From Rhodothermales bacterium (GTDB lineage Bacteria; Bacteroidota; Rhodothermia; Rhodothermales; Bin80), in the NCBI GenBank assembly GCA_951812585.1, contig OX638318.1, positions 1,501,058-1,565,057 of the forward strand: DNA of 64,000 bases, read 5' to 3'. The notes beneath the pieces were generated by a model, which was not told the DNA's origin, searched no databases, and worked only from the letters and a program-made list of their open reading frames with translations. Position 1 is the first letter of the stretch. Each line of letters begins with the position of its first letter. Both the position numbers and the translations under genes were made by a program. Positions 17,757 through 58,294 of this stretch are shown piece by piece.

Positions 17757-19211
17757 ATGCAGAATCGATTTAAGACGACCATAGATCTGACGGCACGAGC
17801 GCGTCGCACCGAAAAAGAGCACGAAGCGCGTACTCACTTTCCCCCGCCGGACCCGCCTCTTCCCAACGCGACCAAGGACACGTTGTCGCCTGCGGTGAGG
17901 TCAGCCTGCGACGCCGCCGGCTGGCCCGCGCTGATGCCGGTCCAGTCAACGGCCATCCCGTACGTGTTGGACGGACGGGACCTCATCGTGCAGTCGCGCA
18001 CGGGCAGCGGAAAGACGGGGGCGTTTATCCTGCCGTTTTTCGACCTTCTGGATGCTTCGCAATCAGTGACGCAGGCCTTGGTGTTAACGCCAACGCGCGA
18101 ACTGGCACGGCAGATTTTCGAGGAGTTCGTGCGCATGAACGCGCAGGGCACGCTGACGGGCGCACTGGTCTATGGTGGCGTGGGTTATGAGGAGCAGATC
18201 AAGCAGCTCCGGGCGGGTGCTCATCTGGTCGTCGGCACGCCTGGACGGATTCTGGACCACCTGCAGCGGCGAACGTTCACCTTGTCCCGTCTGTCGGTCC
18301 TGGTCCTGGACGAGGCGGACGAGATGCTGTCCTTGGGCTTTATGCCCGATATGCAAGTGCTCCAGCGTTATTTGCCTCCGGCTCGGCAATCATACATGTT
18401 CAGTGCGACCATGCCACCGAAGGTGCGGGTGCTGGGGCGCATGTTTCTGAACGCGCCGGCCTTTCTGGGCCTCAGCGAGGATCAGATCAGCGTAGAAACC
18501 ATACGGCACTGGTACTGTCGCGTGGACCAGATTGGCAAATCCCGTGCGCTGATACGGCTGTTGGAGGTGGAAGACCCGTCGTCGGCTATCGTCTTTGCGA
18601 ACACGCGCACGGAAGTGTCCTTTGTGGCCTCCTTCCTGCGCAATTACGGCTTTGCTGCGGCGGCCATGTCCGGCAAGTTGACGCAGCAGATGCGCGAGCG
18701 GGCCATGCAGCGGCTAAAGACGGGCCGGCTCCGCATCCTTGTGGCCACCGATGTGGCCGCACGGGGCATCGACATCAGCCAACTGAGCCATGTGATTCAG
18801 TATGATGTGCCCCAGAACATGGAAATGTATATTCATCGCACGGGGCGCACTGCACGGGCGGGCCGGACCGGGACCGCCATAACGCTGGCCACGTTTGACG
18901 ATGTACAACACCTTGGCGCCATAGCGCGCTACTATGCATTGGATATGGAAAAGCGCCCACTGCCCACGGAAAGAGAGGCTACGGAACGCATCGTGGAACG
19001 TACGACGGAAGCCCTGGAGGGTGTGCTTGCAAACAAGACCCGTCTGGATCGGGAGCGTCTGACGCGCTTCATCCCTTTGGTGCAGTCGCTTGCGCAGGAG
19101 AAGCCCGCCCTTTTGGCCATGCTTCTGGATGAGCTGCATCAGCGGCACAGCCGTGGCGCGCGAAACACGGGCCAAAAGGGTCGGCATGGCCGCCGCAAAG
19201 CACAGTCATGA
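17757..19211 (+). CDS. DEAD-box ATP-dependent RNA helicase
   Basis: Q-motif region, SRTGSGKTGAF (motif I), VLDEADEML (DEAD), SAT, and HRTGRTARAGRTG (motif VI). The exact start is uncertain. Confidence 0.88.
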   Translation: MQNRFKTTIDLTARARRTEKEHEARTHFPPPDPPLPNATKDTLSPAVRSACDAAGWPALMPVQSTAIPYVLDGRDLIVQSRTGSGKTGAFILPFFDLLDASQSVTQALVLTPTRELARQIFEEFVRMNAQGTLTGALVYGGVGYEEQIKQLRAGAHLVVGTPGRILDHLQRRTFTLSRLSVLVLDEADEMLSLGFMPDMQVLQRYLPPARQSYMFSATMPPKVRVLGRMFLNAPAFLGLSEDQISVETIRHWYCRVDQIGKSRALIRLLEVEDPSSAIVFANTRTEVSFVASFLRNYGFAAAAMSGKLTQQMRERAMQRLKTGRLRILVATDVAARGIDISQLSHVIQYDVPQNMEMYIHRTGRTARAGRTGTAITLATFDDVQHLGAIARYYALDMEKRPLPTEREATERIVERTTEALEGVLANKTRLDRERLTRFIPLVQSLAQEKPALLAMLLDELHQRHSRGARNTGQKGRHGRRKAQS

Positions 19212-30771: not shown

Positions 30772-31251
30772 TATTGGCGCAGCGCGCCGGGAAAACGGTC
30801 CGTCCGCGCGTGCCATCCGGTTGTACGCTGTAGCAGTACAAACGGAGTCCTGCAGTGCAGTGATGGGAGGAATTGGCACCTGCTTCGACTTTGACAGAGT
30901 GCAGTGCGCACGAAAGGCACCGGCCGAATGCGCTGAGGCCGAATATGCTGGCGCGGCGTGAACGTACGAATCTCCTTGTTTGCAAACAGAGCATTATATG
31001 CTAAAGTGTCGGGCAGTCATAGGCACGGTGGCCCATGGGCCGCGAACGCCAAGAGGCAGATGCGCAAGAGAATCAGCTCGCAGCGAACGACCGCCGTGCG
31101 TTGGGTGTGCGTACTGCCAGGCATCTTGAAGCGATGCGCACCAGGCCGGTCGCTGGCAACGAACCAGAATTCGAACCGCGGGCCGTGTGCCTTGGCGTTG
31201 GCAACCGGGGGCGGTGGCATGCGCGGAAGCTGTGTCCAGGCGATTACAGAG

Positions 31252-31440
31252 TTAACTGAAGCTTACTTCGTCCTGGGCGGCGGGCTTGGCCTTCGGTGCC
31301 TCCGGCCTCCCGCCCTTCAAGAACTGCCGTGTAGCTTCCTGTATCGTTAGCCCGCCGTAGCGCGGATTCGCCGCTGGCGTGTTACCCCACGTGCCCTGCA
31401 AGCGCTTACGCTTGCGCTCCTGCCGGTCGCCTTTTGTCAT
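31252..31440 (-). CDS. small IS-encoded accessory ORF (62 aa), copy A homolog
   Basis: MTKGDRQERKRKRLQGTWGNTPAANPRYGGLTIQEATRQFLKGGRPEAPKAKPAAQDEVSFS. Shares a TP..NPRY.GLTIQ.A.RQ..K core with the 63-aa ORFs of copies B, D and E. Confidence 0.55.
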   Translation of the reverse strand: MTKGDRQERKRKRLQGTWGNTPAANPRYGGLTIQEATRQFLKGGRPEAPKAKPAAQDEVSFS

Positions 31441-31490
31441 TTCAGTGTCCTGTGTCCGTATGGATTGATCTACTGAGTTGGTGCACAACG

Positions 31491-32428
31491 CTACGCTGTC
31501 AGCGTAGCGTACATGAGCCGTTTGCCCACCATACCAGCCACAACGTGCTGCCTTTGCTCCAGCGTATCCATTGTGCGTACGTTGTGCTTGCCCGCAAACT
31601 GGTGCCCGTAGCGGTGCACGTGCTTCTTGCTCCAGTGGTGGTACGTACCATGATACGCCCGCTTGAACATGCTCCAGAATGATTCCAGCCCGTTCGTGTG
31701 CGCCATGCCATTGACCCACCCGCCGACCGAGTGCTTGACGGTTTCGTGCTGCACCCCAGTCATGCCCTTGTAGACGTGCGCCTCATCGGTGTAGACCGTT
31801 GTGCCGAGGTGTTATCGTAAACGAACGGCTGTAAGGTCGCTGCATTCGTGCTCTCCACCACTTCGGCCCGAATCTGCCCGCTTGCACGGTCTTTCAGGCC
31901 GGCCACCGCCGTCTTGACTACCGGGCCGCGTCCGGCTTTCTGCTTCCTGTGCTCGTGCTTGTTTTTCTCCAAGCCACCCCCGTACGTTTCGTCGGCCTCC
32001 ACCGGTCCCTCGAACGCAGCGGCCAGCAGGAGCGCAAAGGCGGCCCGTACGCGCTGCAACATGAACCAGGCCGTAGTCTGCGTCCCATCGAGGTCGCGGT
32101 GGAGCTTCATGCTGGAGACGCCCTTCAGGGAGGTCATTTCAAGATAAATGGCCCATACCCACTTCTTCAACGGCAGCCGGCTACTGGCCAATGCGGTACC
32201 TGTGCGCACCGAGAAGAACCGCTTGCACGGACGGCATCGGTACGGCATTGGCCTGTGTGTGCCCGCATACGTGTCTGTGCCCTTGCAGCGCGGGCACAGA
32301 CGACCGTCCGGCCAAATCACAGCCTCGAGCCACAGGACGGCCGCCTGCTCATTCGGAAACATTTCGGCCAGTTTGGCCATGCTGATTCCCTTGCGATACC
32401 TGCGCCCAGGCCCCGATTTAACCGCCAT
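31491..32428 (-). pseudogene. IS1595-family transposase, frameshifted
   Basis: ORFs 31760..32428 (Zn ribbon CPRCKGTDTY...YRCRPCKRFF; EADETYGGG) and 31491..31763 (HETVKHSVGGWVNGMAHTNGLESFW) are consecutive parts in different frames. The break lies near 31800, apparently a 1-nt loss in ...VYDNTS|GTTVYTDEA... Confidence 0.8.
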
Positions 32429-32800
32429 GAATTCCCCGATCTGGTGTACCCCCTCTATGCGCCGATCGGGAAGAAGTTTTCAGTTAATTATATAACCACC
32501 TCCCGATAAGTACCTCTATGGTCAGCCCGGTCCCTACACCCCACCCCCTACCCAGCACTGCTGCCAGCCGCTTTTGATGTGGAGGATGCGCTTGCACTCT
32601 AGCACCTACCGTTGTCATCCAGGCGTTGTTGGGAAGTCATGCCTCCCATCATCCAGCATACCCGCAACCGGACGGAGTGAGGCACAAGGGGCAGTGACCA
32701 GGTATTGTGAAGGCGCAGATCAAGGAAAAAAATCCTGGAGGTCTTGCGTCGCATAGCAGCGTGACAGTATATTTGACCCGATCATCGTTCACCTTACGAC

Positions 32801-35727: not shown

Positions 35728-36669
35728 TCATGGCGTATCGGGCTGCGCTGTCTCTCCCCGAATGGCGCGGCGCACAAAGCCGTCTGCTTGTGCAAGGCGT
35801 GCTTGCGCCTCGGGCTTGTCTACGTCAGCGAGGACCATCACCAACGCAGTCTTGACATGGCCATCGGCTGCCTCCAGCACTTTAGAAGCAGCGACGTAGT
35901 CTAAGCCCGCAACAATCATCATGGTCCGTCGGGAACGCTCCACGAGCTTCTGCGCGCTCATCTGAAGGTCCACCATCATGTTTTCGTAAACCTTGCCCAT
36001 ACGCACCATCGCAGCTGTCGTGAGCATGTTGAGCACGAGCTTTTGGGCCGTGCCGCTCTTCATGCGCGTGGAGCCCATGATTACTTCCGGTCCGACCACG
36101 ACGCAGATGGCGACATCCACAGGCAGCGTGAAGGTGGCCCGTGGATTGCAGGTAACGAACAGTGTTTTGCACCCTATGGCACGCGCGGCCCTGGTCGCGC
36201 CGACCACGTATGGCGTGCGCCGACTGGCAGCAATGCCGCAGACTATATCTTGCGGCGTCACGCCGTGAATGCGCAGGGCCTCCGCACCGTCCGCTTCACT
36301 GTCTTCGGCCCCTTCCTGGGACCTGAACACTGCTGCCGGTCCGCCTGCAATGATGCCCTGGACCATCTCCGGCGGCGTACCGAAGGTTGGCGGGCATTCC
36401 GATGCATCCAGGATTCCCAGGCGGCCGCTGGTGCCGGCCCCTACATAAAACAATCGACCTCCGGCCCGAAAGGTATCCACAATGAGCTGGACAGCTTCTG
36501 CTATGTAAGCGGACTCTGCGCGTACGGCATGGGCTACACGCTGGTCCTCGTCATTGATGATGCGAAGGATTTCCGCGATGCTGCTCGTATCGATATGCTG
36601 CGAGCGCGGGTTGCGTTGCTCAGTGACGAGGGTACTAAGCTGGTGGTACAGCCGGGAAGCTTTGGACAT
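35728..36669 (-). CDS. murQ: N-acetylmuramic acid 6-phosphate etherase
   Basis: SIS-domain protein with TEQRNP, GRLFYVGAGTSGRLG and SRRTPYV motifs. Start placed at the ATG giving MSKASRLYHQL (the ORF track opens at a TTG at 36681). Confidence 0.88.
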   Translation of the reverse strand: MSKASRLYHQLSTLVTEQRNPRSQHIDTSSIAEILRIINDEDQRVAHAVRAESAYIAEAVQLIVDTFRAGGRLFYVGAGTSGRLGILDASECPPTFGTPPEMVQGIIAGGPAAVFRSQEGAEDSEADGAEALRIHGVTPQDIVCGIAASRRTPYVVGATRAARAIGCKTLFVTCNPRATFTLPVDVAICVVVGPEVIMGSTRMKSGTAQKLVLNMLTTAAMVRMGKVYENMMVDLQMSAQKLVERSRRTMMIVAGLDYVAASKVLEAADGHVKTALVMVLADVDKPEAQARLAQADGFVRRAIRGETAQPDTP

Positions 36670-36722
36670 AGCAAAATGCAACTTGGAGAATGATACACAC
36701 TGAACTGTACACTACTTGGGGC

Positions 36723-36914
36723 TTAGACGAGCCGAAGCTCGTCGTTTCTTGCCCTCAAATCTGCCGCTTGCTTCGGTTTTGGCCTGGCCTTCTCCAGTTG
36801 CCTTACCGCCTTCTGGATCGTTAGTCCGCGATAGCGCGGATTCGGACTGGGCGTGTTGTCGATCCGCTCAAACTCAGCGTGTAACGCGTCCTTCGTATCG
36901 TTGACCCTTCTCAT
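36723..36914 (-). CDS. small IS-encoded accessory ORF (63 aa)
   Basis: MRRVNDTKDALHAEFERIDNTPSPNPRYRGLTIQKAVRQLEKARPKPKQAADLRARNDELRLV. Its ATG overlaps the transposase TGA (CAATGA). Intact in all copies. Confidence 0.6.
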   Translation of the reverse strand: MRRVNDTKDALHAEFERIDNTPSPNPRYRGLTIQKAVRQLEKARPKPKQAADLRARNDELRLV

Positions 36915-37847
36915 TGCGCAATCAGATCTTTGTACATAAGCCGCCGCCCTGCCCGTGCGGCCACTACGTGCTGCATTTGTTCGAGCGTGTCCATGTCCCG
37001 GACGTTGTGCTTTTGCGCAAACTGGTGCACGTACCGCTGCAAGTGCTTGGCACTCATTTTGTGGTACACGCCATGGTACGCCCGCTTCAGCGTGGCCCAG
37101 AACGACTCCAGCCCGTTCGTGTGAGCCATGCCGTTGACCCATTCGCCCACGCTGTGTTTGACCGTCTCATGCTCCCTACCGATCATGCCCTTGTAAGCGG
37201 TGGCGTCGTCCGTGTAGACCGTTGCGCCGATTTCGGTGGGGTTATACACGAACTGCTTCAACGTCGGGCCGCTTGTGTCCTCAACGACCGTGGCCCGAAT
37301 CTGGCCGGTACCGCGGTCTTTCAGCCCCGCTACCGCCGTCTTGCCAACCGTTCCGCGTCCCGCTTTCAGCTTCTTGTGCGCGTGCTTGTTGGCCTCCTTG
37401 CCCCCAACCATACGTCTCGTCGGCTTCAACCGGGCCTTCAAACGCGGCGGCGGCTAACGGCGCGAACGCCTCCCGAATCCGTTGCAGCATGAACCACGCC
37501 AACTTTTGCGTGATGCCCAGGTCGCGGTGAAGCTTCATGCTGGATACGCCCTTGAGCGCGGTCATTTCAAGATAAATGGCGTAGGTCCACTGGAGCAAGG
37601 GCAACCGTGAGGCTTGCAGCACCGTGCCCGTCCGAACACTGAACCGCTTGCGGCACATGCGGCAACGGTACGGCATGGTCTGTTGTGGGCAAGCATAGGT
37701 ATAGGTGCCCCTGCACTGCGGGCAAAAGCGGCCTTCCGGCCAAAAGATGGCCTCAAACCACTCCCGGGCGGCCTCCTCGCTCGGATACCGCCGTGCCAAC
37801 GCCAAGAGTGTGAGTCCCTTGCGGTGTGATCTGCCTGGCCCTGTCAT
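36911..37847 (-). pseudogene. IS1595-family transposase with a single frameshift
   Basis: ORFs 37281..37847 (Zn ribbon + HTH, ...EADETYG) and 36911..37441 (VGGKEANKH...DDE region...MYKDLIAQ). The expected ETYVGGK is read as GAG ACG TAT GGT TGG GGG, i.e. one extra G at 37408-37409. Confidence 0.85.
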
Positions 37848-38163
37848 GATTCCCCCGATCTGGTTTAGTCCTCATACGGCCCCAATCGAAGAAAAATTAC
37901 AGTTAAGTATATAAACCCCTTTCTGATCTGGCATTGCGCCGCCACAGCAAACGGATGCGTAGCACGTCCGATGCCACGCATTGATCCTTGCGGTGCTCGC
38001 CGCAGGATATGTGCAAGCGCGGTCCTTCATGTAGAGCCAGTAATCTGCGGATAGTTTGGCAAAAGAGGTGCGCATTTGTGTTGCAATACGCCGTGCGCCT
38101 TAGTTTGCTCTTGATTAAGGGCTTCGTGCGCGCGGTGCACAGGGCCAGAATGCCGTTGGCAGT

Positions 38164-48402: not shown

Positions 48403-51240
48403 CTAGAAAGTAACAGCGTGGTATGGGTTTTCTTTTGTTAGCGCCTCGCGGAGGAACCGCGCCGTATGGCTCTCTTCATGTTTCGCTACTTCTTCCGGTG
48501 TGCCGGTGACTACCACACACCCCCCGGCGAAACCGCCCTCCGGTCCCAGGTCAATAATCCAGTCGGCTGCCTTGATGATATCCATGTTGTGCTCAATCAC
48601 CACGACGGAATGGCCTTGCTCCATCAGGCGGTTCAATGCCGCCAGCAGCTTCCGGATATCGTCAAAGTGCAGTCCGGTCGTGGGTTCATCAAAGATATAG
48701 AGCACCTGCTCTTTGAGACTGCTGCCCAGATGCGTGGCAAGCTTGACGCGCTGCGCCTCGCCCCCGGACAAGGTAGTCGCCGGCTGCCCAAGCTTCAGAT
48801 AACCTAGCCCGATGGTGCTTAGGGTCTTAAGGCGTGACACTACAGACCGCTTCCCCGAAAAAAAGTCGATGGCTTCATCGACAGTAAGCTGCAGCACATC
48901 GTCAATGTTCTTGCCCTTGTAGCAAATCTCAAGGACTTCGTCCTTGAATCGCCTTCCTCGGCATTCTTCGCATTCCAGGTAGAGGTCGGCTAAAAACTGC
49001 ATCTCTACCCGGATGGCGCCATCGCCGGCACAGACTTCGCAGCGTCCTCCGTCCACATTGAATGAGAAAACACCGGGCTTGTAGCCGCGCAGCTTGGCAT
49101 GATGGGTGCCTGCAAAAATCTTCCGGATACCATCAAAAGCGCCGGAATACGTGGCCGCATTGGAACGGGAAGAACGGCCTATGGGGCTCTGGTCCACCAT
49201 TTCAACGCGGTCAACAAGTTCGTGTCCGAGGATTCTGTCATGCAGACCGACCGCTTTGCGCAAAACAAACTGTCCCTTGAGCGCGCGCAAGCCCTGATAT
49301 AACGTGTCGCAAACCAGCGTGGACTTGCCCGAGCCGCTGACACCTGTCACTACCGTCAGGCAGCCGAGCGGAAAGGCCACATCAATGCGCTTGAGATTGT
49401 GCGATCGCGCACGCTCGATCACCACGGCACGGGACGGGTGGGGCCGATGCCGCCGGGCGAGGACCGGAATGCGCTTGCGAAGGCTGAGGTAGTCACCTGT
49501 CAAAGAGGCGCTGCTCTGAAGCATTTCCTCGAAACTGCCCTGGAAGGTAATGCGGCCGCCCTTGTGCCCGGAGCCTGGCCCAAGATCAACGATCTCGTCT
49601 GCGTGCTGCATCACCAAGGCATCATGCTCCACCACGATCACGGTATTGCCCAAATCGCGCAGGCGCTGCAGGATGCGGATCAGGCGCGAAGTGTCGCGCG
49701 GATGCAACCCGATGGTGGGCTCGTCCAGGACGTAGAGCGATCCCACCAAGGAGCTGCCTAGCGATGCCGCCAGGTTGATTCGCTGGCTTTCACCCCCGGA
49801 AAGCGTTTGCGACAGGCGATCCAATGTGAGATAGCCCAGACCTACCTCAACCAGAAAGCGCAGCCGGTTGCGAAGCTCTCCCAGCAGCACGGCAGCCACT
49901 TCCTGCTCGAACGGTGTAAGCTTTAGCTCGGCGAAGAATGTGCGCGCATCGCGCGTGGTCAGCTCCAGAACCTGTCCAATATGGAGGCCGCCGATCTGGA
50001 CATGCCGCGCTTCGCGCCGAAGACGGGATCCGCCGCAGTGACTGCAAACGTCATAGCCCACATACCGATTGTACAAGGCGCGCTTGGCCTTAGATGCCGA
50101 TGGCGCGCCCATGTCCTCCAGTAGGGCGCGAATGCCAGGGTATGTTCCGAAGCCCTCCCAAAGCATCATCTTGTCGGACTCACGCAAGTGCTTGTACGGG
50201 CGATTGACGTTTATACGCGCCCATTGCGCAATGTGCAAGAGCTCTGTATGCATGGACCTTAGATCGGGGGGCGGCACTGCAAAGCAGCGCGCAGCGCCTT
50301 CTCGCAAGGAAAGCCACGGCTTGCTGAAGACCAGATCCGCCCTCAGTTCCTTTCTGCGTCCGAAACCCTTGCATGCGGCACAGGCACCCATCGGACTGTT
50401 GAAAGAAAACAGGTGCGCCGTGGGCTCCTCAAACGTCATGCCGTCCCGCTCGAAATGCTGGCTGAACGCAAGCAGCGCGTATTCGCCCATGGCTTGCACC
50501 GCTACGCAGCGGCCTCCGCCCGCCTTGAATGCATGCTCAACAGAATCCGCTATGCGCGTGGCGTTACCTTCGTCGCCCCTGCGGACAACAAGGCGGTCCT
50601 GAACAACATAAGCGGTCCTGAACGGCATTCCGGGCGAGACCTGGTCCAGCGCCATCACCGCAGGGGGTCCCTTTGCTGCCGTGGACAACAGGCGGGTATA
50701 GCCGCGCTGCAGCAAAGCGTCCACCGTAGCGGTGTCATCTAACGGAAACGCCAGATAGAATCGGGTGCCCTCCTCCCAGCACCGGGCCAGCTGCGTGGCT
50801 ACGGAGCGCGGGGTGTCCCGGGTCACGACCTCGCCGCTTACCGGCGAGATGGTTTGGCCTATCTGCGCATACAAAAGGCGGAGGTAGTCATAGATTTCGG
50901 TCTGGGTTGCAACCGTTGAGCGCGGGTTTCGGGAAAGCGCCTTCTGCTCGATGGCGATAGCCGGCGCAAGCCCGCCGAGATAGTCGACATCCGGCTTGTC
51001 CATCCGCACCAGGAATTGCCGTGCATATGCACTGAGGCTTTCCATATACCGCCGCTGGCCTTCGGCAAAGATCGTATTGAATGCCAGTGAGGACTTGCCT
51101 GAGCCCGACGGTCCGGTGATGACGTTGATCTTTCGCTTCGGAAGATCGAGGCTGATATTCTTCAGATTATGCTGTCGGGCGCCGCGGATGATGATGTATT
51201 GCCTTGGGTCCACACCGTGAGTAAAACCTGATAAGTCCAT
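48403..51240 (-). CDS. uvrA: excinuclease ABC subunit A
   Basis: 945 aa. Two ABC ATPase modules (GPSGSGKSSLAF, GVSGSGKSTL), zinc-finger cysteines, and LSGGE signatures. Confidence 0.95.
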   Translation of the reverse strand: MDLSGFTHGVDPRQYIIIRGARQHNLKNISLDLPKRKINVITGPSGSGKSSLAFNTIFAEGQRRYMESLSAYARQFLVRMDKPDVDYLGGLAPAIAIEQKALSRNPRSTVATQTEIYDYLRLLYAQIGQTISPVSGEVVTRDTPRSVATQLARCWEEGTRFYLAFPLDDTATVDALLQRGYTRLLSTAAKGPPAVMALDQVSPGMPFRTAYVVQDRLVVRRGDEGNATRIADSVEHAFKAGGGRCVAVQAMGEYALLAFSQHFERDGMTFEEPTAHLFSFNSPMGACAACKGFGRRKELRADLVFSKPWLSLREGAARCFAVPPPDLRSMHTELLHIAQWARINVNRPYKHLRESDKMMLWEGFGTYPGIRALLEDMGAPSASKAKRALYNRYVGYDVCSHCGGSRLRREARHVQIGGLHIGQVLELTTRDARTFFAELKLTPFEQEVAAVLLGELRNRLRFLVEVGLGYLTLDRLSQTLSGGESQRINLAASLGSSLVGSLYVLDEPTIGLHPRDTSRLIRILQRLRDLGNTVIVVEHDALVMQHADEIVDLGPGSGHKGGRITFQGSFEEMLQSSASLTGDYLSLRKRIPVLARRHRPHPSRAVVIERARSHNLKRIDVAFPLGCLTVVTGVSGSGKSTLVCDTLYQGLRALKGQFVLRKAVGLHDRILGHELVDRVEMVDQSPIGRSSRSNAATYSGAFDGIRKIFAGTHHAKLRGYKPGVFSFNVDGGRCEVCAGDGAIRVEMQFLADLYLECEECRGRRFKDEVLEICYKGKNIDDVLQLTVDEAIDFFSGKRSVVSRLKTLSTIGLGYLKLGQPATTLSGGEAQRVKLATHLGSSLKEQVLYIFDEPTTGLHFDDIRKLLAALNRLMEQGHSVVVIEHNMDIIKAADWIIDLGPEGGFAGGCVVVTGTPEEVAKHEESHTARFLREALTKENPYHAVTF

Positions 51241-51775
51241 GCAAATCAGAGGTTAAGGGCCCGTAGATACGCTTCCGGATAAGTATGAGGCAAAAGCTTG
51301 GATTTGGCAATTGGATGGACGCGGAGCAGGGCTTCGGTGCAGCTTGCCAGCCGTTGCGCGTCTACGCAGCCTTCCATGCATTGGGATGTCATTCCCTTTG
51401 CCAGCGACTTGGCAATAGTGCAGTGATGCGCCCCCAAGGGGTGCGTCAAAACGCGACTCAGCATGTCAATCAGCCAACAGCCAACCTCCAAGATGCGCCG
51501 CAGGCCGCTTGTACGCGCCAAAGAGCGAAATGGCCGCGGCTGCCGCGGCGCTGCGGTACGCGATGGGCAAGCAAGAGGTACTTCGGATACAGTACCGACG
51601 GCCGCAGCGCAATCCCGACCAGGTTGTTGTGCCGCTTATGCAGACACCTTCCAGGCAGTGGGTCAGCTGTCGGAATTGTCCAGCAATGTAATGAAATAGA
51701 TTCATCTTGTTATATAAGCAATTCAGTTCATGTTTATTTAGGGGCTTGTATACTTAACTGTACACTGCTTGGGGC

Positions 51776-51967
51776 TTAGACGAGCCGAAGTTCGTCGTTT
51801 CTTGCCCTCGATTCTGCCGCTTGCTTCGGTTTCGGCCTGGCCTTCACCAGTTGCCTTACCGCCTGCTGGATCGTCAATCCGCGATAGCGCGGATTCGGAC
51901 TGGGCGTGGTGTCGATCCGCTCAAACTCAGCGTGTAACGCGTCCTTCGTATCCTTGACCCTTCTCAT
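51776..51967 (-). CDS. small IS-encoded accessory ORF (63 aa)
   Basis: MRRVKDTKDALHAEFERIDTTPSPNPRYRGLTIQQAVRQLVKARPKPKQAAESRARNDELRLV. Intact although the adjacent transposase gene is heavily damaged. Confidence 0.6.
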   Translation of the reverse strand: MRRVKDTKDALHAEFERIDTTPSPNPRYRGLTIQQAVRQLVKARPKPKQAAESRARNDELRLV

Positions 51968-52878
51968 TGCGCAATCAGATCCTTGTACATAAGCCGCCGC
52001 CCTGCCCGTGCGGACACCACGTGCTGCATTTGTTCGAGCGTGTCCATGTCCCGGACGTTGTGCTTTTACGCAAGCTGCTGCACGTACCGTTGCAAGTGCT
52101 TGGCGCTCATTTTGTGGTACACACCAAGGTACGCCCGCTTCAGCGTGGCCCAGAACGACGCCAGCCCGCTTGTGTGGGCCATGCCGTTGACCTATTCGCC
52201 CCCGCTGTGTTTGACCGTCTCACGCTCCATACCGATCATGCCCTTGTAAGCGGTGGCGTCGTCCGTGTAGACCGTTGCGCCGATTTCGGTGGGGTTATAC
52301 ACGAACTGCTTCAACGTCGGGCCGCTTTGTATCCTCAACGACCTTGGCCGAATCTGGCCGGTACCGCCGTCTTGCCAACCGTTCCGCGTCCCGCTTTCAG
52401 CTTCTTGTGCGCGTGCTTGTTGGCCTCCTTGCCTCCAACCATACGTCTCGTCGGCTTCAACCGGGCCTTCAAACGCGGCGGCGGCTAACGGCGCGAACGC
52501 CTCCCGAATCCGTTGCTGCATGAACCACGCCGACTTTTACGTGATGCCCAGGTCGCGGTGAAGCTTCATGCTGGATACGCCCTTGAGCGCGGTCATTTCA
52601 AGATAAATGGCGTAGGTCCACTGGAGCAAGGGCAACCGAGAGGCTTGCAGCACCGTGCCCGTCCGAACACTGAACCGCTTGCGGCACGTGCGGCAACGGT
52701 ACGGCATGGTCTGTTGCGGGCAAGCATAGGTATCGGTGCCCCTGCACTGCGGACAAAAGCGGCCTTCCGGCCAATAGATGGCCTCAAACCATTCCCGGGC
52801 GGCTTCCTCGTTCGGATACCGCCGTGCCAACGCTAAAAGTGTGATTCCCTTGCGGTGTGATCTGCCTGGCCCTGTCAT
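51964..52878 (-). pseudogene. IS1595-family transposase, multiple lesions
   Basis: Same extra G as copy B (52437-52443 context) and the same TGG-to-TAG stop as copy E. Also two CAA-to-TAA stops (after ...DLGIT and ...QQLA) and an internal deletion. Confidence 0.85.
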
Positions 52879-52948
52879 GATTCCCCCGATCTGGTCTAAT
52901 CCTCATACGGCCCAATCGAAGAAAGTTACAGTTAAGTATATAAGCCCC

Positions 52949-53287
52949 TTTTGTATCCCAGTCTATGGCTATACCCATTGCCGAAAACGACGCACCGCGT
53001 ACTGCGGCGTGCTCACGCACGGCAACCTTAGCACTATCAATCACGCCAGGAAGACCGGGATCGTTACACCACCCACAGGCTGCAGAACCGAAGTACACCA
53101 GCACAAGTTCACGTTCCAGCGGCTCCGTGAATGATGGTGTATATCGCGTCGAGTCGTCGTGATACGCATTCGGCCATTCGACCGTGATGGCCGGGAAAGG
53201 CAGGACGCCCGAGGCTGCCAATACAAACGTCGCGGACAACACCATTACGAATGCTGCTCTCCCCCAGCCTTTCCGATGTGCGTCCAC
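52949..53287 (-). pseudogene. thioredoxin-fold protein (CGWC motif), 3'-truncated by IS copy D
   Basis: GTG start, signal/TM segment, and LVLVYFGSAACGWCND. The reading frame runs straight into the IS inverted repeat after ...GIAIDWDTK (113 aa of native sequence). Confidence 0.6.
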
Positions 53288-53298
53288 TGTCGTGTCGG

Positions 53299-54465
53299 TT
53301 ACCGTGTGGTGATCGGTATAGGATGGATCCCCAGTTGAGGATAAGGTGTGGATTGGGCAGTGTAAAGACGCTCCTGGTCTATGGCCCGCACAATCCTTCC
53401 GGTAAAAGACGAATTGATCGGGCGTACCCCCAGATACTCGCCCTGCCCAGATAGCACATTCACTTTGTAAAAGTGATTCATCCAGCGGTCCCGTTCCACG
53501 GAGCGAATTTCACGGCGTATCAGCCAGAACGACTCTCCGCGTGCTCCTCCGAGGATTTCGATGTCCCAAGACTCGCCAACAACTTGCGGCGGAGCAACAA
53601 AAATCCCCCAGTTCCCGTCCTCAACAACCACCTTCGGTCTGCGTGTCATCCGGGCATCTGAAAACCTGACCTGCCAGATCATATCACCCGACTCGGTGAA
53701 CGCGGTTGCTATGGGAGCACTCGGCTGTGTATACAGAAGAGTGTGATGGGTCGCGTTGCACTCCAGGCTGCCCCCTTCCGCCATTGTATGACGAACAATT
53801 CGATGCGGGCTATTGTAGCGCGCGCCAATCGATAAGACATATTCCCCTTCCAGGGTGTGTTTGTGGATCACACCATCGAGGTCATCGGAGTATCCTGTGG
53901 TGTAAACGTGCCCATGCATCGCGCACATTTCGCCATTAAAGAATGACGCGACAGCACTGAACGAATTCTGGAATTCATGGCTGCCGTCCCGATTCTTTCT
54001 GAACACCGACACCCTTCCTCTTCCGGATCCGACCACCACGTACAAGTCGTCTCCAGTACCCGTAACGGAAACCTTTCTCACAAGGCCAAATTCGCCCGGT
54101 CCTGCCCCGGGGCCTCCGATGATGTCTGCCAGATGGCCTTCAAAATCGTAGGCGCGGACATGACTGAAACTCCCATCCACATAGTATACAAGGCTGTCAC
54201 TAACCGCCACATCCCGTATTTGGCCGATCATGTCGTTTGGACCCCCCTCCTCGTCGCCGACCATGTGACCCTCACGGAGTGCATCCTGCATCCAAAACAA
54301 CGTGTCCTGTGGCTCATCAAAGATGATGAACCTCGGATCTGTGACCGTCGGAATGTTGTCCGGCGTTGGGTGGAAAAGAGCAACGTCCCTGTCTGTCCCT
54401 CCTTGGCAGGACGCGAGTAGCGTCAGTGCCAGCAGGAACAGCAGTGGCTTCCGAGTCGGCCTCAT
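53299..54465 (-). CDS. lipoprotein, probable 6-bladed beta-propeller (NHL-like, GPGEF motif)
   Basis: 388 aa. Lipobox LTLLASC. GGPGAGPGEFGLVRKVSV and repeated beta-strand-rich units. Lower G+C than the core genes. Confidence 0.5.
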   Translation of the reverse strand: MRPTRKPLLFLLALTLLASCQGGTDRDVALFHPTPDNIPTVTDPRFIIFDEPQDTLFWMQDALREGHMVGDEEGGPNDMIGQIRDVAVSDSLVYYVDGSFSHVRAYDFEGHLADIIGGPGAGPGEFGLVRKVSVTGTGDDLYVVVGSGRGRVSVFRKNRDGSHEFQNSFSAVASFFNGEMCAMHGHVYTTGYSDDLDGVIHKHTLEGEYVLSIGARYNSPHRIVRHTMAEGGSLECNATHHTLLYTQPSAPIATAFTESGDMIWQVRFSDARMTRRPKVVVEDGNWGIFVAPPQVVGESWDIEILGGARGESFWLIRREIRSVERDRWMNHFYKVNVLSGQGEYLGVRPINSSFTGRIVRAIDQERLYTAQSTPYPQLGIHPIPITTR

Positions 54466-54583
54466 CCTCTATTGCTCCTCTTGCTCAAACCAAGGGATAC
54501 ATGGCCATTGAATACAGCTAGTCACAAGCCCAACATCCCAAATATAGCATTTCGTAAACCGTGGGTAGTCACCGTCTATAAAT

Positions 54584-54605
54584 GGGGCTTATATACTTAA
54601 CTGTA
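54584..54605 (+). repeat. terminal inverted repeat of copy E (GGGGCTTATATACTTAACTGTA)
   Basis: Exact reverse complement of 55793-55814. Confidence 0.9.
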
Positions 54606-54618
54606 CACTGCTTGGAGC

Positions 54619-54810
54619 TTAGACGTGCCGAAGTTCGTCGTTTCTTGCCCTCGAAGCTGCCGCTTGCTTCGGTTTCGGACTGGCCTTCACCAGTTGCCTT
54701 ACCGCCTGCTGGATCGTCAATCCGCGATAGCGCGGATTCGGACTGGGCGTGGTGTCGATCCGCTCAAACTCAGCGTGCAACGCGCCCTTCGTATCCTTGA
54801 CCCTTCTCAT
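54619..54810 (-). CDS. small IS-encoded accessory ORF (63 aa)
   Basis: MRRVKDTKGALHAEFERIDTTPSPNPRYRGLTIQQAVRQLVKASPKPKQAAASRARNDELRHV. Its ATG overlaps the transposase stop. It ends 35 nt from the IS terminus. Confidence 0.6.
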   Translation of the reverse strand: MRRVKDTKGALHAEFERIDTTPSPNPRYRGLTIQQAVRQLVKASPKPKQAAASRARNDELRHV

Positions 54811-55743
54811 TGCGCAATCAGATCCTTGTACATAAGCCGCCGCCCTGCCCGTGCGGACACCACATGCTGCATTTGTTCGAGCGTGTCCATGTCCCGGACG
54901 TTGTGCTTTTGCGCAAACTGGTGCACGTACCGTTGTAAGTGCTTGGCGCTCATTTTGTGGTACACGCCATGGTGCGCCCGCTTCAGCGTGGCCCAGAACG
55001 ACTTCAGCCCGCTTGTGTGGGCCATGCCGTTGACCTATTCGCCCACGCTGTGTTTGACCGTCTCATGCTCCATACCGATCATGCCCTTGTAAGCGGTGGC
55101 GTCGTCCGTGTAGACCGTTGCGCCGATTTCGGTGGGGTTATACACGAACTGCTTCAACGTCGGGCCGCTTGTGTCCTCAACGACCGTGGCCCGAATCTGG
55201 CCGGTACCGCGGTCTTTCAGCCCCGCTACCGCCGTCTTGCCAACCGTTCCGCGTCCCGCTTTCAGCTTCTTGTGCGCGTGCTTGTTGGCCTCCTTGCCCC
55301 CAACCATACGTCTCGTCGGCTTCAACCGGGCCTTCAAACGCGGCGGCGGCTAACGGCGCGAACGCCTCCCGAATCCGTTGCAGCATGAACCACGCCAACT
55401 TTTGCGTGATGCCCAGGTCGCGGTGAAGCTTCATGCTGGATACGCCCTTGAGCGCGGTCATTTCAAGATAAATGGCGTAGGTCCACTGGAGCAAGGGCAA
55501 CCGTGAGGCTTGCAGCACCGTGCCCGTCCGAACACTGAACCGCTTGCGGCACGTGCGGCAACGGTACGGCATGGTCTGTTGCGGGCAAGCATAGGTATCG
55601 GTGCCCCTGCACTGCGGACAAAAGCGGCCTTCCGGCCAAAAGATGGCCTCAAACCACTCCCGGGCGGCCTCCTCGCTCGGATACCGCCGTGCCAACGCCA
55701 AGAGTGTGAGTCCCTTGCGGTGTGATCTGCCTGGCCCTGTCAT
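54807..55743 (-). pseudogene. IS1595-family transposase, frameshift plus premature stop
   Basis: Extra G at the ETY|VGGK site (55302-55308 context), and GAA TAG GTC where copy B has GAA TGG GTC (W to amber) after ...HSVGE. Confidence 0.85.
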
Positions 55744-55792
55744 GATTCCCCCGATCTGGTTTAATCCTCATACGGCCCAATCGAAGAAAAGT

Positions 55793-55814
55793 TACAGTTA
55801 AGTATATAAGCCCC
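55793..55814 (-). repeat. terminal inverted repeat of copy E
   Basis: TACAGTTAAGTATATAAGCCCC, the exact reverse complement of 54584-54605. Confidence 0.9.
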
Positions 55815-56176
55815 TTATTTAATGTATAACACTATCCGCACCCTTATGCTCCACAGCCAAAGGGTCACAAAGGCGCATCATTAGAAGCTGGATGTTCTCT
55901 CCCGGCACCTGGCCTGACAGCGGAACCAACAGCTGAATGTCTGGGGACGTTTTTTCGTCAACCGGAGGCGGAGCTACCTGAGGTTTTCGCCGTGGAAAAG
56001 CGTTCGGTTCTCCTGGTTGGGTTGGGATATACTACGGGCAGGTGAGCACCTTCTGGCCATCATGGTTTCAGTGCTTCAAAGGTTGGTCCAGTGGTCTGCG
56101 CAGTCAGGTCATGATGCAGGACAGGACACCACCTCCCTGCAATCAACTCAGGAATACGGTGCCCAATCGAATGGCC

Positions 56177-58294
56177 CTAGCCTTCGGCTTCCTTGGCCGC
56201 TTCGGCCACCACCTTGTCTTGGACATTGCGCGGCATGGCCTCGTAGTTGCTGAATGAGGACGTATGTATGCCACGCCCCTGGGTTATCGAGCGCAGGGCG
56301 GTGGAATAGCGGTACAGCTCTGCCTCGGGGACCAGGGCCTTGATCTTTTGCATCATGCCTTCGGCTTCAATGCCCTGGATGCGGGCCCGCCGCGTGTTCA
56401 TGTCTCCCATGACATCGCCCGTGTAGGACTCGGGCACCGTCACCTCCACATTGTGAATCGGCTCGAGGATCACCGGTCGAGCCTGCCTGAAAGCCGCTCG
56501 AAAACACATGCGCGCCGCTGTCTTGAATGCCGCCTCATTGGAGTCCACCGAATGCATGCCCCCGTCAAAGATGACCAGCCGGAGGTTGCCGACAGGGTAC
56601 TTCGCCAGCGGACCCCACTGCATTGCTTCCAGCACCCCCTTCTGAATCGCGCCGAAGAAGCGGCGCATGTCTATCACACCCCCAACGATGCCGTCAATGA
56701 ACTCAATAGTGGAACCCCAGCCCGTCGACACCTGGACCGTCTTGCGCACCGAGATATCGGGACGCTTCTTGAATTCGCCATCCAAGGGTTCTATCAGCAC
56801 GGATATATCCGCGAACTGACCCGCCCCGCCGGTCTGCTTCTTGTGTCGGTAGGAGGCACGCGCTTCGGTCGTTACCGTTTCGCGATACGCAATGCGGGGA
56901 CGTCCAAACTCCACATCCACATTGACCTTGGCCTTGAGCCGGTATTGGGCGACGCGTAGGTGTAATTCGCCTTGGCCGCCGAGGGTCACCTGGCTCAGAT
57001 GCGGATCATGCGCAACGACCAGCGAAGGGTCCTCGGCCGTGATCTGATGCAAGCCCTGCGCCAACTTGTCCTCTTCTCCCTCGTTCGCAGGGCGGATGGA
57101 AGAACGGTAGCGCGGCGCGGGAAACTGGATCGGCGTGATCACGGTGGCGCTGCCCTTGATGCGAAGCGTATTGTTGGTGTGCGTACTGCGAAGCTTGACG
57201 AGAGCACCCAGGTCGCCGGCCACCATCCTGGGCACGGTCTCACGCTCCCGGCCGTTAAGCACATAGAGCTGTCCAAGACGCTCCATGGTGCCCGTCTGCG
57301 CATTCTCGAGGTCCATGCCGTGTTCAATCGTACCTCCATAGGTGCGAAAGAACGAGTAGTCCCCGACATGCTGTTCAGCCATCGTGCGATACACAAAGGC
57401 GACCGGGCTTCCGGACGCGCTCGCTGTGACCGGATCTCCTGAATCTGTCGGCGCTGCGGGCATGTCTATCGGCGAGGGGCAGACGTGCTCAATGAAGCTC
57501 ATCAGTCGCGTCGTGCCCGCATTGGCCGTTGCGACCGTGCAAAATATGGGGAACAGCTCCCGCTCAATCATCGCCGCGCGCAGGCCCCGCCGCATCTCTT
57601 CCTCCGTCAACTCTCCCTCCTCGAAATAACGCTCCATCAGCTCCTCGTCGTTGACCGCAATGTCTTCCACGAGTTTGCTGTGCAGCGCTTCTGCGCGCTC
57701 CATAAACGGCGCAGGTATATCTCCCGCGGTCTGCTTGCCGTCCGCATCATAGGACAGCTGCTTCATTTGCAGGACATCAATGATGACGTTGGTGCCCTGA
57801 CCCGGGAACTGCACGATAGAAGCGCTCGCTCCGAAGCGCCCCATGATCTGTCCGGTCAGCCGGTCCACATCCGCATGCCGGCGGTCGACCTGGTTGATCA
57901 CAAACATGGCGGGGCGCTTGCTGTCGGCGGCGCAGTTCCACGCGAGCTCTGCGCCCACCTCGATGCCATCCTGCGCATTCATGACGAACACCGCCGTGTC
58001 TACCACGCGCATGGCGGCCACGACTTCGCCAATGAAGTCAGGGTAGCCCGGCGTATCAATGATGTTGATCTTGTGCTTTTGCCACTTCGCGTGCAGCAGC
58101 GAGGAGAAGATGGACATCTGCCGCTCCTTTTCGCTAGGGTGGTAATCGCTTACCGTATTTCCCTCGCCGACGGAGCCTAACCGATGCGTGGTGCCGCTGA
58201 CAAACAGCATCGATTCTGCAAGCGAGGTCTTGCCGCTGCCCTGGTGTCCCACCAGTCCGATGTTGCGAATGAATGTCGAGTCAGATCGATTCAT
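56177..58294 (-). CDS. elongation factor G paralog (EF-G2-like GTPase)
   Basis: Start at the ATG at 58294 (MNRSDSTFIRNIGLVGHQGSGKTS). Full five-domain EF-G length (705 aa). Not in an rpsL-rpsG-fusA context, and the G1 motif differs from the canonical AHIDAGKTT. Confidence 0.8.
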   Translation of the reverse strand: MNRSDSTFIRNIGLVGHQGSGKTSLAESMLFVSGTTHRLGSVGEGNTVSDYHPSEKERQMSIFSSLLHAKWQKHKINIIDTPGYPDFIGEVVAAMRVVDTAVFVMNAQDGIEVGAELAWNCAADSKRPAMFVINQVDRRHADVDRLTGQIMGRFGASASIVQFPGQGTNVIIDVLQMKQLSYDADGKQTAGDIPAPFMERAEALHSKLVEDIAVNDEELMERYFEEGELTEEEMRRGLRAAMIERELFPIFCTVATANAGTTRLMSFIEHVCPSPIDMPAAPTDSGDPVTASASGSPVAFVYRTMAEQHVGDYSFFRTYGGTIEHGMDLENAQTGTMERLGQLYVLNGRERETVPRMVAGDLGALVKLRSTHTNNTLRIKGSATVITPIQFPAPRYRSSIRPANEGEEDKLAQGLHQITAEDPSLVVAHDPHLSQVTLGGQGELHLRVAQYRLKAKVNVDVEFGRPRIAYRETVTTEARASYRHKKQTGGAGQFADISVLIEPLDGEFKKRPDISVRKTVQVSTGWGSTIEFIDGIVGGVIDMRRFFGAIQKGVLEAMQWGPLAKYPVGNLRLVIFDGGMHSVDSNEAAFKTAARMCFRAAFRQARPVILEPIHNVEVTVPESYTGDVMGDMNTRRARIQGIEAEGMMQKIKALVPEAELYRYSTALRSITQGRGIHTSSFSNYEAMPRNVQDKVVAEAAKEAEG

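Follow-up and report, generated by a model that had tools for sequence, protein, structure and literature searches.

Insertion sequences (IS) of the IS1595 family generate target duplications of 8 bp, or 7-9 bp in the IS1016 group. IS-mediated adjacent deletion is the intramolecular transposition of one IS end and is described for IS1, IS10, IS903, and IS26. Structures bounded by directly oriented IS copies are termed pseudo-compound transposons. Tn7560 of Actinobacillus pleuropneumoniae is such a transposon, and its boundaries are directly oriented copies of ISApl4, which belongs to the IS1016 group of the IS1595 family (PMC12561309). ISApl4 is 712 bp long and active, the two arms are identical, AT-rich targets are used with 8-bp duplications, and transfer of Tn7560 has been demonstrated (PMC12561309). 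As that paper cites it for IS26-type elements, a circle of IS plus cargo can enter a resident IS, which leaves the duplication of the resident outside the pair (Harmer, Pong and Hall 2020, as cited in PMC12561309). Here, we analyzed a 64-kb stretch of contig OX638318.1 from an uncultured Rhodothermales bacterium (the window; all bare coordinates are window positions), in which two defective IS1595-family copies, D and E, enclose a lipoprotein gene between uvrA and a gene for an EF-G2-like protein.

Like Tn7560, the locus has two directly oriented IS1595-family copies around passenger genes, and like ISApl4, the IS favors AT-rich targets and makes an 8-bp duplication, as seen for a copy in another genome (L003, see below). 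Unlike in Tn7560, the IS is 1231 bp long, the two arms differ by 5% and are both dead, the unit has no documented movement, and the cargo is without known function. The locus also resembles IS26-type units in being bounded by direct IS copies, but IS26 belongs to another family (IS6/IS26) with a dedicated conservative reaction. The likeness to adjacent deletions lies at copy D. Its terminus is fused precisely to a truncated gene, no duplication is present, and DNA is missing in comparison with a longer allele. At D, however, we infer the mechanism, and an insertion followed by recombination between IS copies yields the same product. As for the family, the zinc ribbon, the ISXO2-like DDE domain, the inverted repeats, and the 8-bp duplication are all present in this lineage, which differs in being unnamed, in being known from defective copies only, and in having its best intact relative at 74% identity.

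A first-pass annotation had proposed that the whole D-cargo-E unit inserted as one piece, which our results do not support. The locus is a decayed scar of mobile DNA of an ordinary kind. Most likely, a later deletion shortened it, and it did not arrive whole as a 4-kb transposon.

Copies D and E and the polymorphic junction at D

D and E are in direct orientation with the transposase on the minus strand in each, and they are separated by 1635 bp that are not IS, so that D, cargo, and E total 4,074 bp (Table 1). As two copies of one IS around passenger DNA, 95% identical to each other, they have the form of a composite or pseudo-compound transposon. Both are bounded by terminal inverted repeats of 22 bp (GGGGCTTATATACTTAACTGTA), which are perfect in E, and the left inverted repeat of D has one mismatch (GGGGCTTGTATAC). 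E carries a +1 frameshift and a TAG stop. D carries the same two lesions together with a 22-bp internal deletion and three 1-nt indels. The inner flanks are dissimilar, with TTTTGTAT from 52949 and CTATAAAT up to 54583, while the heptamer TTATTTA abuts both outer ends of the pair. In all of this, the coordinates, flanks, orientation, and broken transposases had been described correctly in the first-pass annotation, as had the two lesions common to D and E, one of which is missing from copy B.

The evidence for a later deletion comes from population contigs, i.e., metagenome contigs found by exact-protein look-ups that are 99.4-99.9% identical to the window. Three of them (L007, L011, and L012) lack D. 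They have the same junction between the E end and the cargo, their cargo is 98.2% identical, and their homology to the window ends exactly at 52948/52949. Beyond this position, they continue with the rest of a CxxC protein gene (intact, 185 aa), two small genes, and a Mu-like transposase. Since the CxxC gene is intact in these contigs, D truncates the gene, and the D-less state is ancestral. L007, L011, and L012 thus provide the longer allele that is expected of an IS-mediated adjacent deletion. The terminus of D adjoins the cargo precisely, like a junction made by a transposase, and this junction is polymorphic in the population.

The two forms share their cargo variation. Between L010 (D present) and L011 (D absent), 2 of the 1167 nt of the lipoprotein gene differ, and no position in this gene is fixed between D-bearing and D-less contigs. 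Two cargo haplotype groups can be recognized, marked by rare junction variants, and each contains D-bearing and D-less contigs. The protein clusters of the 185-aa CxxC protein and of a 260-aa protein have no member on the source contig (3,198,349 bp), and a 105-aa protein is recorded on two short contigs only, not on the source contig. As the proteins of the long allele are not on the source contig, no donor copy is kept there. D-less contigs came from the samples ERZ23495240, ERZ23495298, and ERZ6126388, and the EF-G2 contigs of the first two samples also end in E. Because the D-less contigs pass the position of the D junction without a branch, these samples are dominated by the D-less form. 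From these comparisons, we favor the reading that the D-less contigs represent an allele of the uvrA/EF-G2 locus rather than a donor locus. The assignment to the same locus follows a population logic because short-read contigs break in the IS. All that a 107-kb metagenome contig reached via protein P0181 has in common with the long allele is a gene fragment of 806 bp.

At the outer ends, all fetched contigs lead into the IS. The five contigs from the uvrA side all stop 31-250 nt inside D and have the identical junction CATGTTTATTTA/GGGGCTTG, and the lengths of the other uvrA contigs fit IS-bounded pieces. On the EF-G2 side, the 11 distinct contigs all run into E, and ten of them stop 27-159 nt inside it. 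The remaining one, a 95-kb scaffold (L010/L016), reads from EF-G2 through E, the lipoprotein gene, and the truncated CxxC gene into 60 nt of D. An empty-site allele, as suggested for a search by the first-pass annotation, should read ...CATGTTTATTTAATGTATAAC..., and it was absent from these 5 and 11 contigs. The corresponding 29-mer gave no match in JGI metagenome contigs, and the protein collection lacks the 172-aa open reading frame (ORF) predicted over the rejoined site. The cluster of a 164-aa ORF at the left junction comprises IS-bearing forms only. The search for the unit elsewhere was equally without result, with no second locus for the 4,074-bp unit and no plasmid DNA match to it. EF-G2 itself has one full-length variant only at an identity of at least 90%.

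Table 1 Features of the D-cargo-E locus and related IS copies in the window
Feature	Position	Strand	Remarks
Left outer repeat TTATTTA	51734-51740		One more T in front (TTTATTTA)
IS copy D, IS1595 family, defective	51741-52948	-	1208 bp
CxxC protein gene, 5' part (about 99-113 codons)	52949-53287	-	Ends exactly at the D terminus
Lipoprotein gene, 388 aa predicted	53299-54465	-	Weak NHL/beta-propeller signal
Lipoprotein upstream region	54466-54583		Adjoins the left end of E; junction polymorphism of +/-1 nt in the population
IS copy E, IS1595 family, defective	54584-55814	-	1231 bp
Right outer repeat TTATTTA	55815-55821		TATTTA in most population contigs
uvrA, left-hand neighbor	48403-51240	-	
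EF-G2-like gene, 705 aa, right-hand neighbor	56177-58294	-	
IS copy A, distinct IS1595-family element	31239-32500	-	About 72% identical to E; broken; without duplication
IS copy B, same IS as D and E	36688-37919	-	+1 frameshift only; without duplication

The 500 bp upstream of uvrA extend to the left repeat; they have 53-66% guanine plus cytosine (GC) and no recognizable gene. The stop codon of EF-G2 is 362 bp away from E. Gene callers place the 164-aa ORF at 51285-51779 on the plus strand, where it begins in the region upstream of uvrA and extends over the first 39 nt of D. It is without a family match and probably spurious. A strain-variable boundary lies ~6 kb to the left of the unit. The 108-kb population contig L009 matches the window from 51990 down to 45769 (99.55%) and has no match in the window beyond ~45769, and several 6-kb contigs also stop there.

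The outer direct repeat and possible histories of the locus

TTATTTA occurs twice in the 64-kb window, at the left junction of D and at the right junction of E. The probability that two 7-mers match by chance is 1.1e-4 for window-wide 7-mers, ~7e-4 with the composition of five other flanks next to IS copies, and 1.1e-2 when only pure A/T 7-mers are allowed for both. With values of 1e-4 to 1e-2, the statistical test that had been asked for at first pass leaves chance as a poor explanation of the repeat. In the 16 left-by-right pairings of the four IS copies, only the left end of D and the right end of E agree by more than 1 nt. Copies A, B, D, and E all lack a target duplication of their own. 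The IS-adjacent flanks are all AT-rich, and the right flanks all open with TT. When the outer flanks are joined, they form a single AT-rich trough of 34-38% GC, as had been claimed, and the rejoined flanks contain no ORF with a family match. Neither an Rfam family nor a convincing terminator or promoter was recognized at the junction.

The length of the repeat was compared with the duplication made by this IS. A pattern of 25 nt from the left end, which includes CAC and could match left ends only, was present at two loci in genome contigs, one of them with an 8-bp duplication. This is the single copy in L003 (L003:20-1241), which is flanked by the perfect 8-bp repeat TTCCGAAA. The 22-mer of the IS end was found only in metagenome contigs of this population and in a solo 31-nt end, and no other complete copy was detected among metagenome contigs. 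The duplication length is taken from one example because the 22-mer search gave no further complete copies. Since the duplication of the L003 copy has 8 bp, the 7-bp repeat requires the loss of 1 nt from an original TTTATTTA. The right junction reads CCCC/TTATTTAATG in the window and in three EF-G2-side contigs, and it reads CCCC/TATTTAATG in 8 of the 11 distinct EF-G2-side contigs, where the repeat is only 6 bp. As the T run is TT or T across the population, the repeat is eroding, as a decayed duplication predicts. Most likely, the outer repeat of 6-7 bp is the eroded remnant of an 8-bp duplication with the sequence TTTATTTA.

Length variants of 1 nt occur exactly at both termini of E (54583/54584 and 55814/55815), as an extra A before GGGG and as TT vs. 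T after CCCC. They were seen in L010, L011, L012, and L016-L026, with all four combinations across samples, and neither site is a long homopolymer.

The setting in related genomes was examined in the two nearest genomes with context, in which EF-G2 is 84% and 79% identical (L004:12115-22118 and L006:12042-22118). One side of EF-G2 is conserved between these relatives and the window, with genes for accD, glucosamine isomerase, DAHP synthase, peptidase M3, and redoxin. Downstream of EF-G2, the relatives have an amidase gene or a 168-aa gene, followed by PSP1, holB, an AMP-binding enzyme, and Cpn10. The window contains none of these genes, and no homology was found between the flanks in the window and these downstream genes. 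The synteny breakpoint to both relatives coincides with the IS-cargo-IS unit (55815-56176 side). If the repeat is a true duplication, the adjacency of uvrA and EF-G2 therefore needs an earlier, separate event.

We tentatively prefer the history of an old IS-bounded accessory segment that was later shortened by an IS-end-mediated deletion, with the repeat as a probable decayed 8-bp duplication. A single IS or a longer IS-bounded segment would have entered the AT-rich spacer between uvrA and EF-G2, making the duplication. Two IS copies would have bounded a longer segment with the lipoprotein gene, the 185-aa CxxC gene, the two small genes, the Mu-like transposase, and more. An event at the inner terminus of D would then have removed the DNA between this terminus and codon ~113 of the CxxC gene, resulting in the 4,074-bp unit. 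This event may have been an intramolecular transposition (adjacent deletion), or a third IS copy may have inserted and then recombined with D. The outcome would have been the exact junction of IS end and gene with no duplication around D. The long and short alleles would still segregate and recombine, and the IS copies would have decayed and swapped segments. Several observations weigh against this history. Instead of the 8 bp seen in L003, the repeat has 7 bp in the window, and most population contigs have only 6 bp. The IS prefers AT-rich targets that start with TT, and a chance match has a non-negligible probability of ~1%. uvrA is not next to EF-G2 in the two nearest relatives, and the long allele is not physically linked to uvrA or EF-G2 in any contig. 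The known copies of the IS are all defective, and the best intact transposase is 74% identical.

In a second reading, which we regard as somewhat unlikely, the repeat would be coincidental. D and E would then be independent old insertions into AT-rich DNA, their own duplications would have been separated by IS-mediated rearrangements that also brought uvrA here, and a deletion from D into the CxxC gene would have followed. The synteny breakpoint exactly at the unit, the misfit between 7 or 6 bp and the 8-bp duplication of L003, the AT-rich flanks with their TT starts that lift the chance match to ~1e-2, and the missing empty site all agree with a coincidence. It does not explain, however, why TTATTTA is confined to the two junctions while the other end pairings agree by at most 1 nt, nor why the joined flanks form a single trough, and it calls for further, unexplained events, since E is without a duplication of its own in every contig. 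In a third reading, the alternative named in the first-pass annotation, a circle of IS, lipoprotein gene, and truncated CxxC gene would have left a donor locus through recombination between two IS copies. It would then have integrated by homologous recombination into a resident IS, with its own duplication, between uvrA and EF-G2, in the style of IS26-type translocatable units. We judge this course of events improbable. It agrees with the direct orientation of D and E, the outer repeat, the unrelated inner flanks, and the IS junctions at both uvrA and EF-G2 in all strains. Its last step works without an active transposase, which fits the dead arms, the mosaic IS copies show that recombination between copies occurs, and the IS1595 family offers a precedent in ISApl4/Tn7560 (PMC12561309). 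But an IS would have had to insert into the CxxC gene at the donor locus, the circle would have had to be excised and integrated, and the rest of the donor, which the source genome lacks, would have had to be lost. Moreover, D-bearing and D-less contigs in both haplotype groups would require repeated events or recombination between loci, and EF-G2, E, and cargo are linked in one scaffold whose lipoprotein sequence is also that of a D-less contig.

There is, finally, little chance that the 4,074-bp unit transposed whole into an empty uvrA/EF-G2 spacer and made the flanking duplication itself, as first proposed. The outer repeat with unrelated inner flanks and the derived lesions common to D and E in their left part are consistent with it, and the D-less contigs could be the donor locus. 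Against it, neither an empty site (in any contig or in the JGI metagenome scan) nor a second copy of the unit or a plasmid match was found, and the junction between EF-G2 and the IS is present even where the D-less form dominates the sample. Divergence is 5% between the arms, in comparison with 0.2% between D-bearing and D-less cargo. In addition, the junction at D is polymorphic, the cargo haplotypes are shared, the repeat has the wrong length for this IS, and the relatives lack the adjacency of uvrA and EF-G2. The frameshift of both arms is already common to copy B, and no intact enzyme is known. The locus records an unnamed IS1595-family element in uncultured Rhodothermales and a lipoprotein gene enclosed in a pseudo-compound-like structure, which has little import beyond annotation. 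As a lesson in method, a direct repeat around two IS copies is no proof that the present unit moved whole, as the population contigs here point to one inner junction as a later, still-segregating deletion.

The IS lineage and its mosaic copies

The frameshift-corrected transposase (311 aa) matches PF12762 (E 7.8e-36, over the cut-off) as an ISXO2/IS1595-type DDE transposase and NF033547 (E 7.9e-49, over the cut-off), and it has an N-terminal zinc ribbon (PF12760, 29.9 bits vs. a cut-off of 25.4). With 1231 bp and inverted repeats, the element also has the form of the IS1595 family, whose members are of ~0.7-1.2 kb. The +1 frameshift is one extra base in the ETYG(W)G/KEANK region. It is common to B, D, and E and is missing from the L003 copy. 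The second lesion, TGG>TAG at E position 453, occurs in D and E only. A programmed frameshift was considered and rejected. Without the extra base, the L003 copy can be read through in frame, which makes the frameshift a true shared lesion.

With L003 as an outgroup, 13 derived sites are common to D and E, 12 of which are in positions 51-453, and seven are common to B and E, all in positions 603-1127. The pairwise identity is 95.1% for D-E and 96.3% for B-E. Hence, the description of D and E as sister arms holds for the left ~450 nt, where D is closest to E, and fails in the right ~650 nt, where E groups with B. As the derived sites are split by region, the IS copies are mosaics. The alignment of the copies indicates gene conversion between dispersed IS copies. 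B and E diverge by ~6% in the left 490 nt and by only ~1.2% in the right 650 nt, and E has no unique change past position 421. In copy B, the left terminal 11 nt (36688-36698, GAATGATACAC) are replaced and do not match the inverted repeat. This left end adjoins the start of a 317-aa ORF (35728-36681, minus strand).

The L003 copy, located in a Rhodothermales metagenome-assembled genome (MAG, OZ244626.1), is 95% identical and also broken. Among 5.8 billion proteins, there was no full-length transposase with more than 74% identity, the best homolog being 74% identical. A functional transposase was found neither in the two arms nor in trans, and the B and L003 copies are broken too. The closest plasmid-borne IS1595-family relative that was found has a transposase with at most 47% identity. 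The lineage is unnamed, was found here only as broken copies, and is apparently extinct. It is very improbable, in our estimation, that the frameshifted lineage reached at least three loci (B, D, and E) and built and remodeled the unit through cross-mobilization by a copy-A-type transposase of 72-74% identity, with the variants of +/-1 nt at the E termini as a sign of continuing end processing and not of ordinary slippage. If true, this would be a modest case of one IS that sustains a defective relative.

Relatives of copy A were also encountered. The 107-kb metagenome contig L030 has one with 94% identity (L030:11344-12177 and 18751-19185), which is split by an insertion of ~6.5 kb with two IS4-type transposases inside. 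An intact relative of 313 aa (P0204) is encoded in MAG OZ244626.1.

Cargo genes

The lipoprotein belongs to a small family. We found 31 homologs, and those that are named or located belong to Rhodothermales/Bacteroidota. For the CxxC protein, there is no Pfam or NCBIfam match. The lipoprotein allele of the window differs from every metagenome allele by 22-28 nt, located in three short tracts, with 13-15 nonsynonymous vs. 4-9 synonymous codon changes. The identity of the flanking core DNA is 99.4-99.9%. P0155, P0157, P0160, and P0161 are mosaic alleles of the protein. Together, these findings suggest gene conversion, recombination, or diversifying selection.

One related genome has four paralogs of the family with 65-67% identity (L006, 2.88-Mb contig). 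In L008, a homolog with 87% identity has an IS4 transposase and another DUF5128/TolB-like gene as neighbors. It seems that the family occurs in paralog clusters near mobile elements. In the Rhodothermaceae bin80 lineage, a conserved geometry of IS and cargo was considered and rejected, as the gene is on the inner side of the IS end and only 30% identical. The IS end concerned is the solo end of 31 nt, which is 100% identical to E positions 1-31 (L002:1387-1417, the same as L027:3789-3819 and L029:5860-5891) and is located ~240 bp upstream of this lipoprotein homolog. It may be a coincidence or an old remnant.

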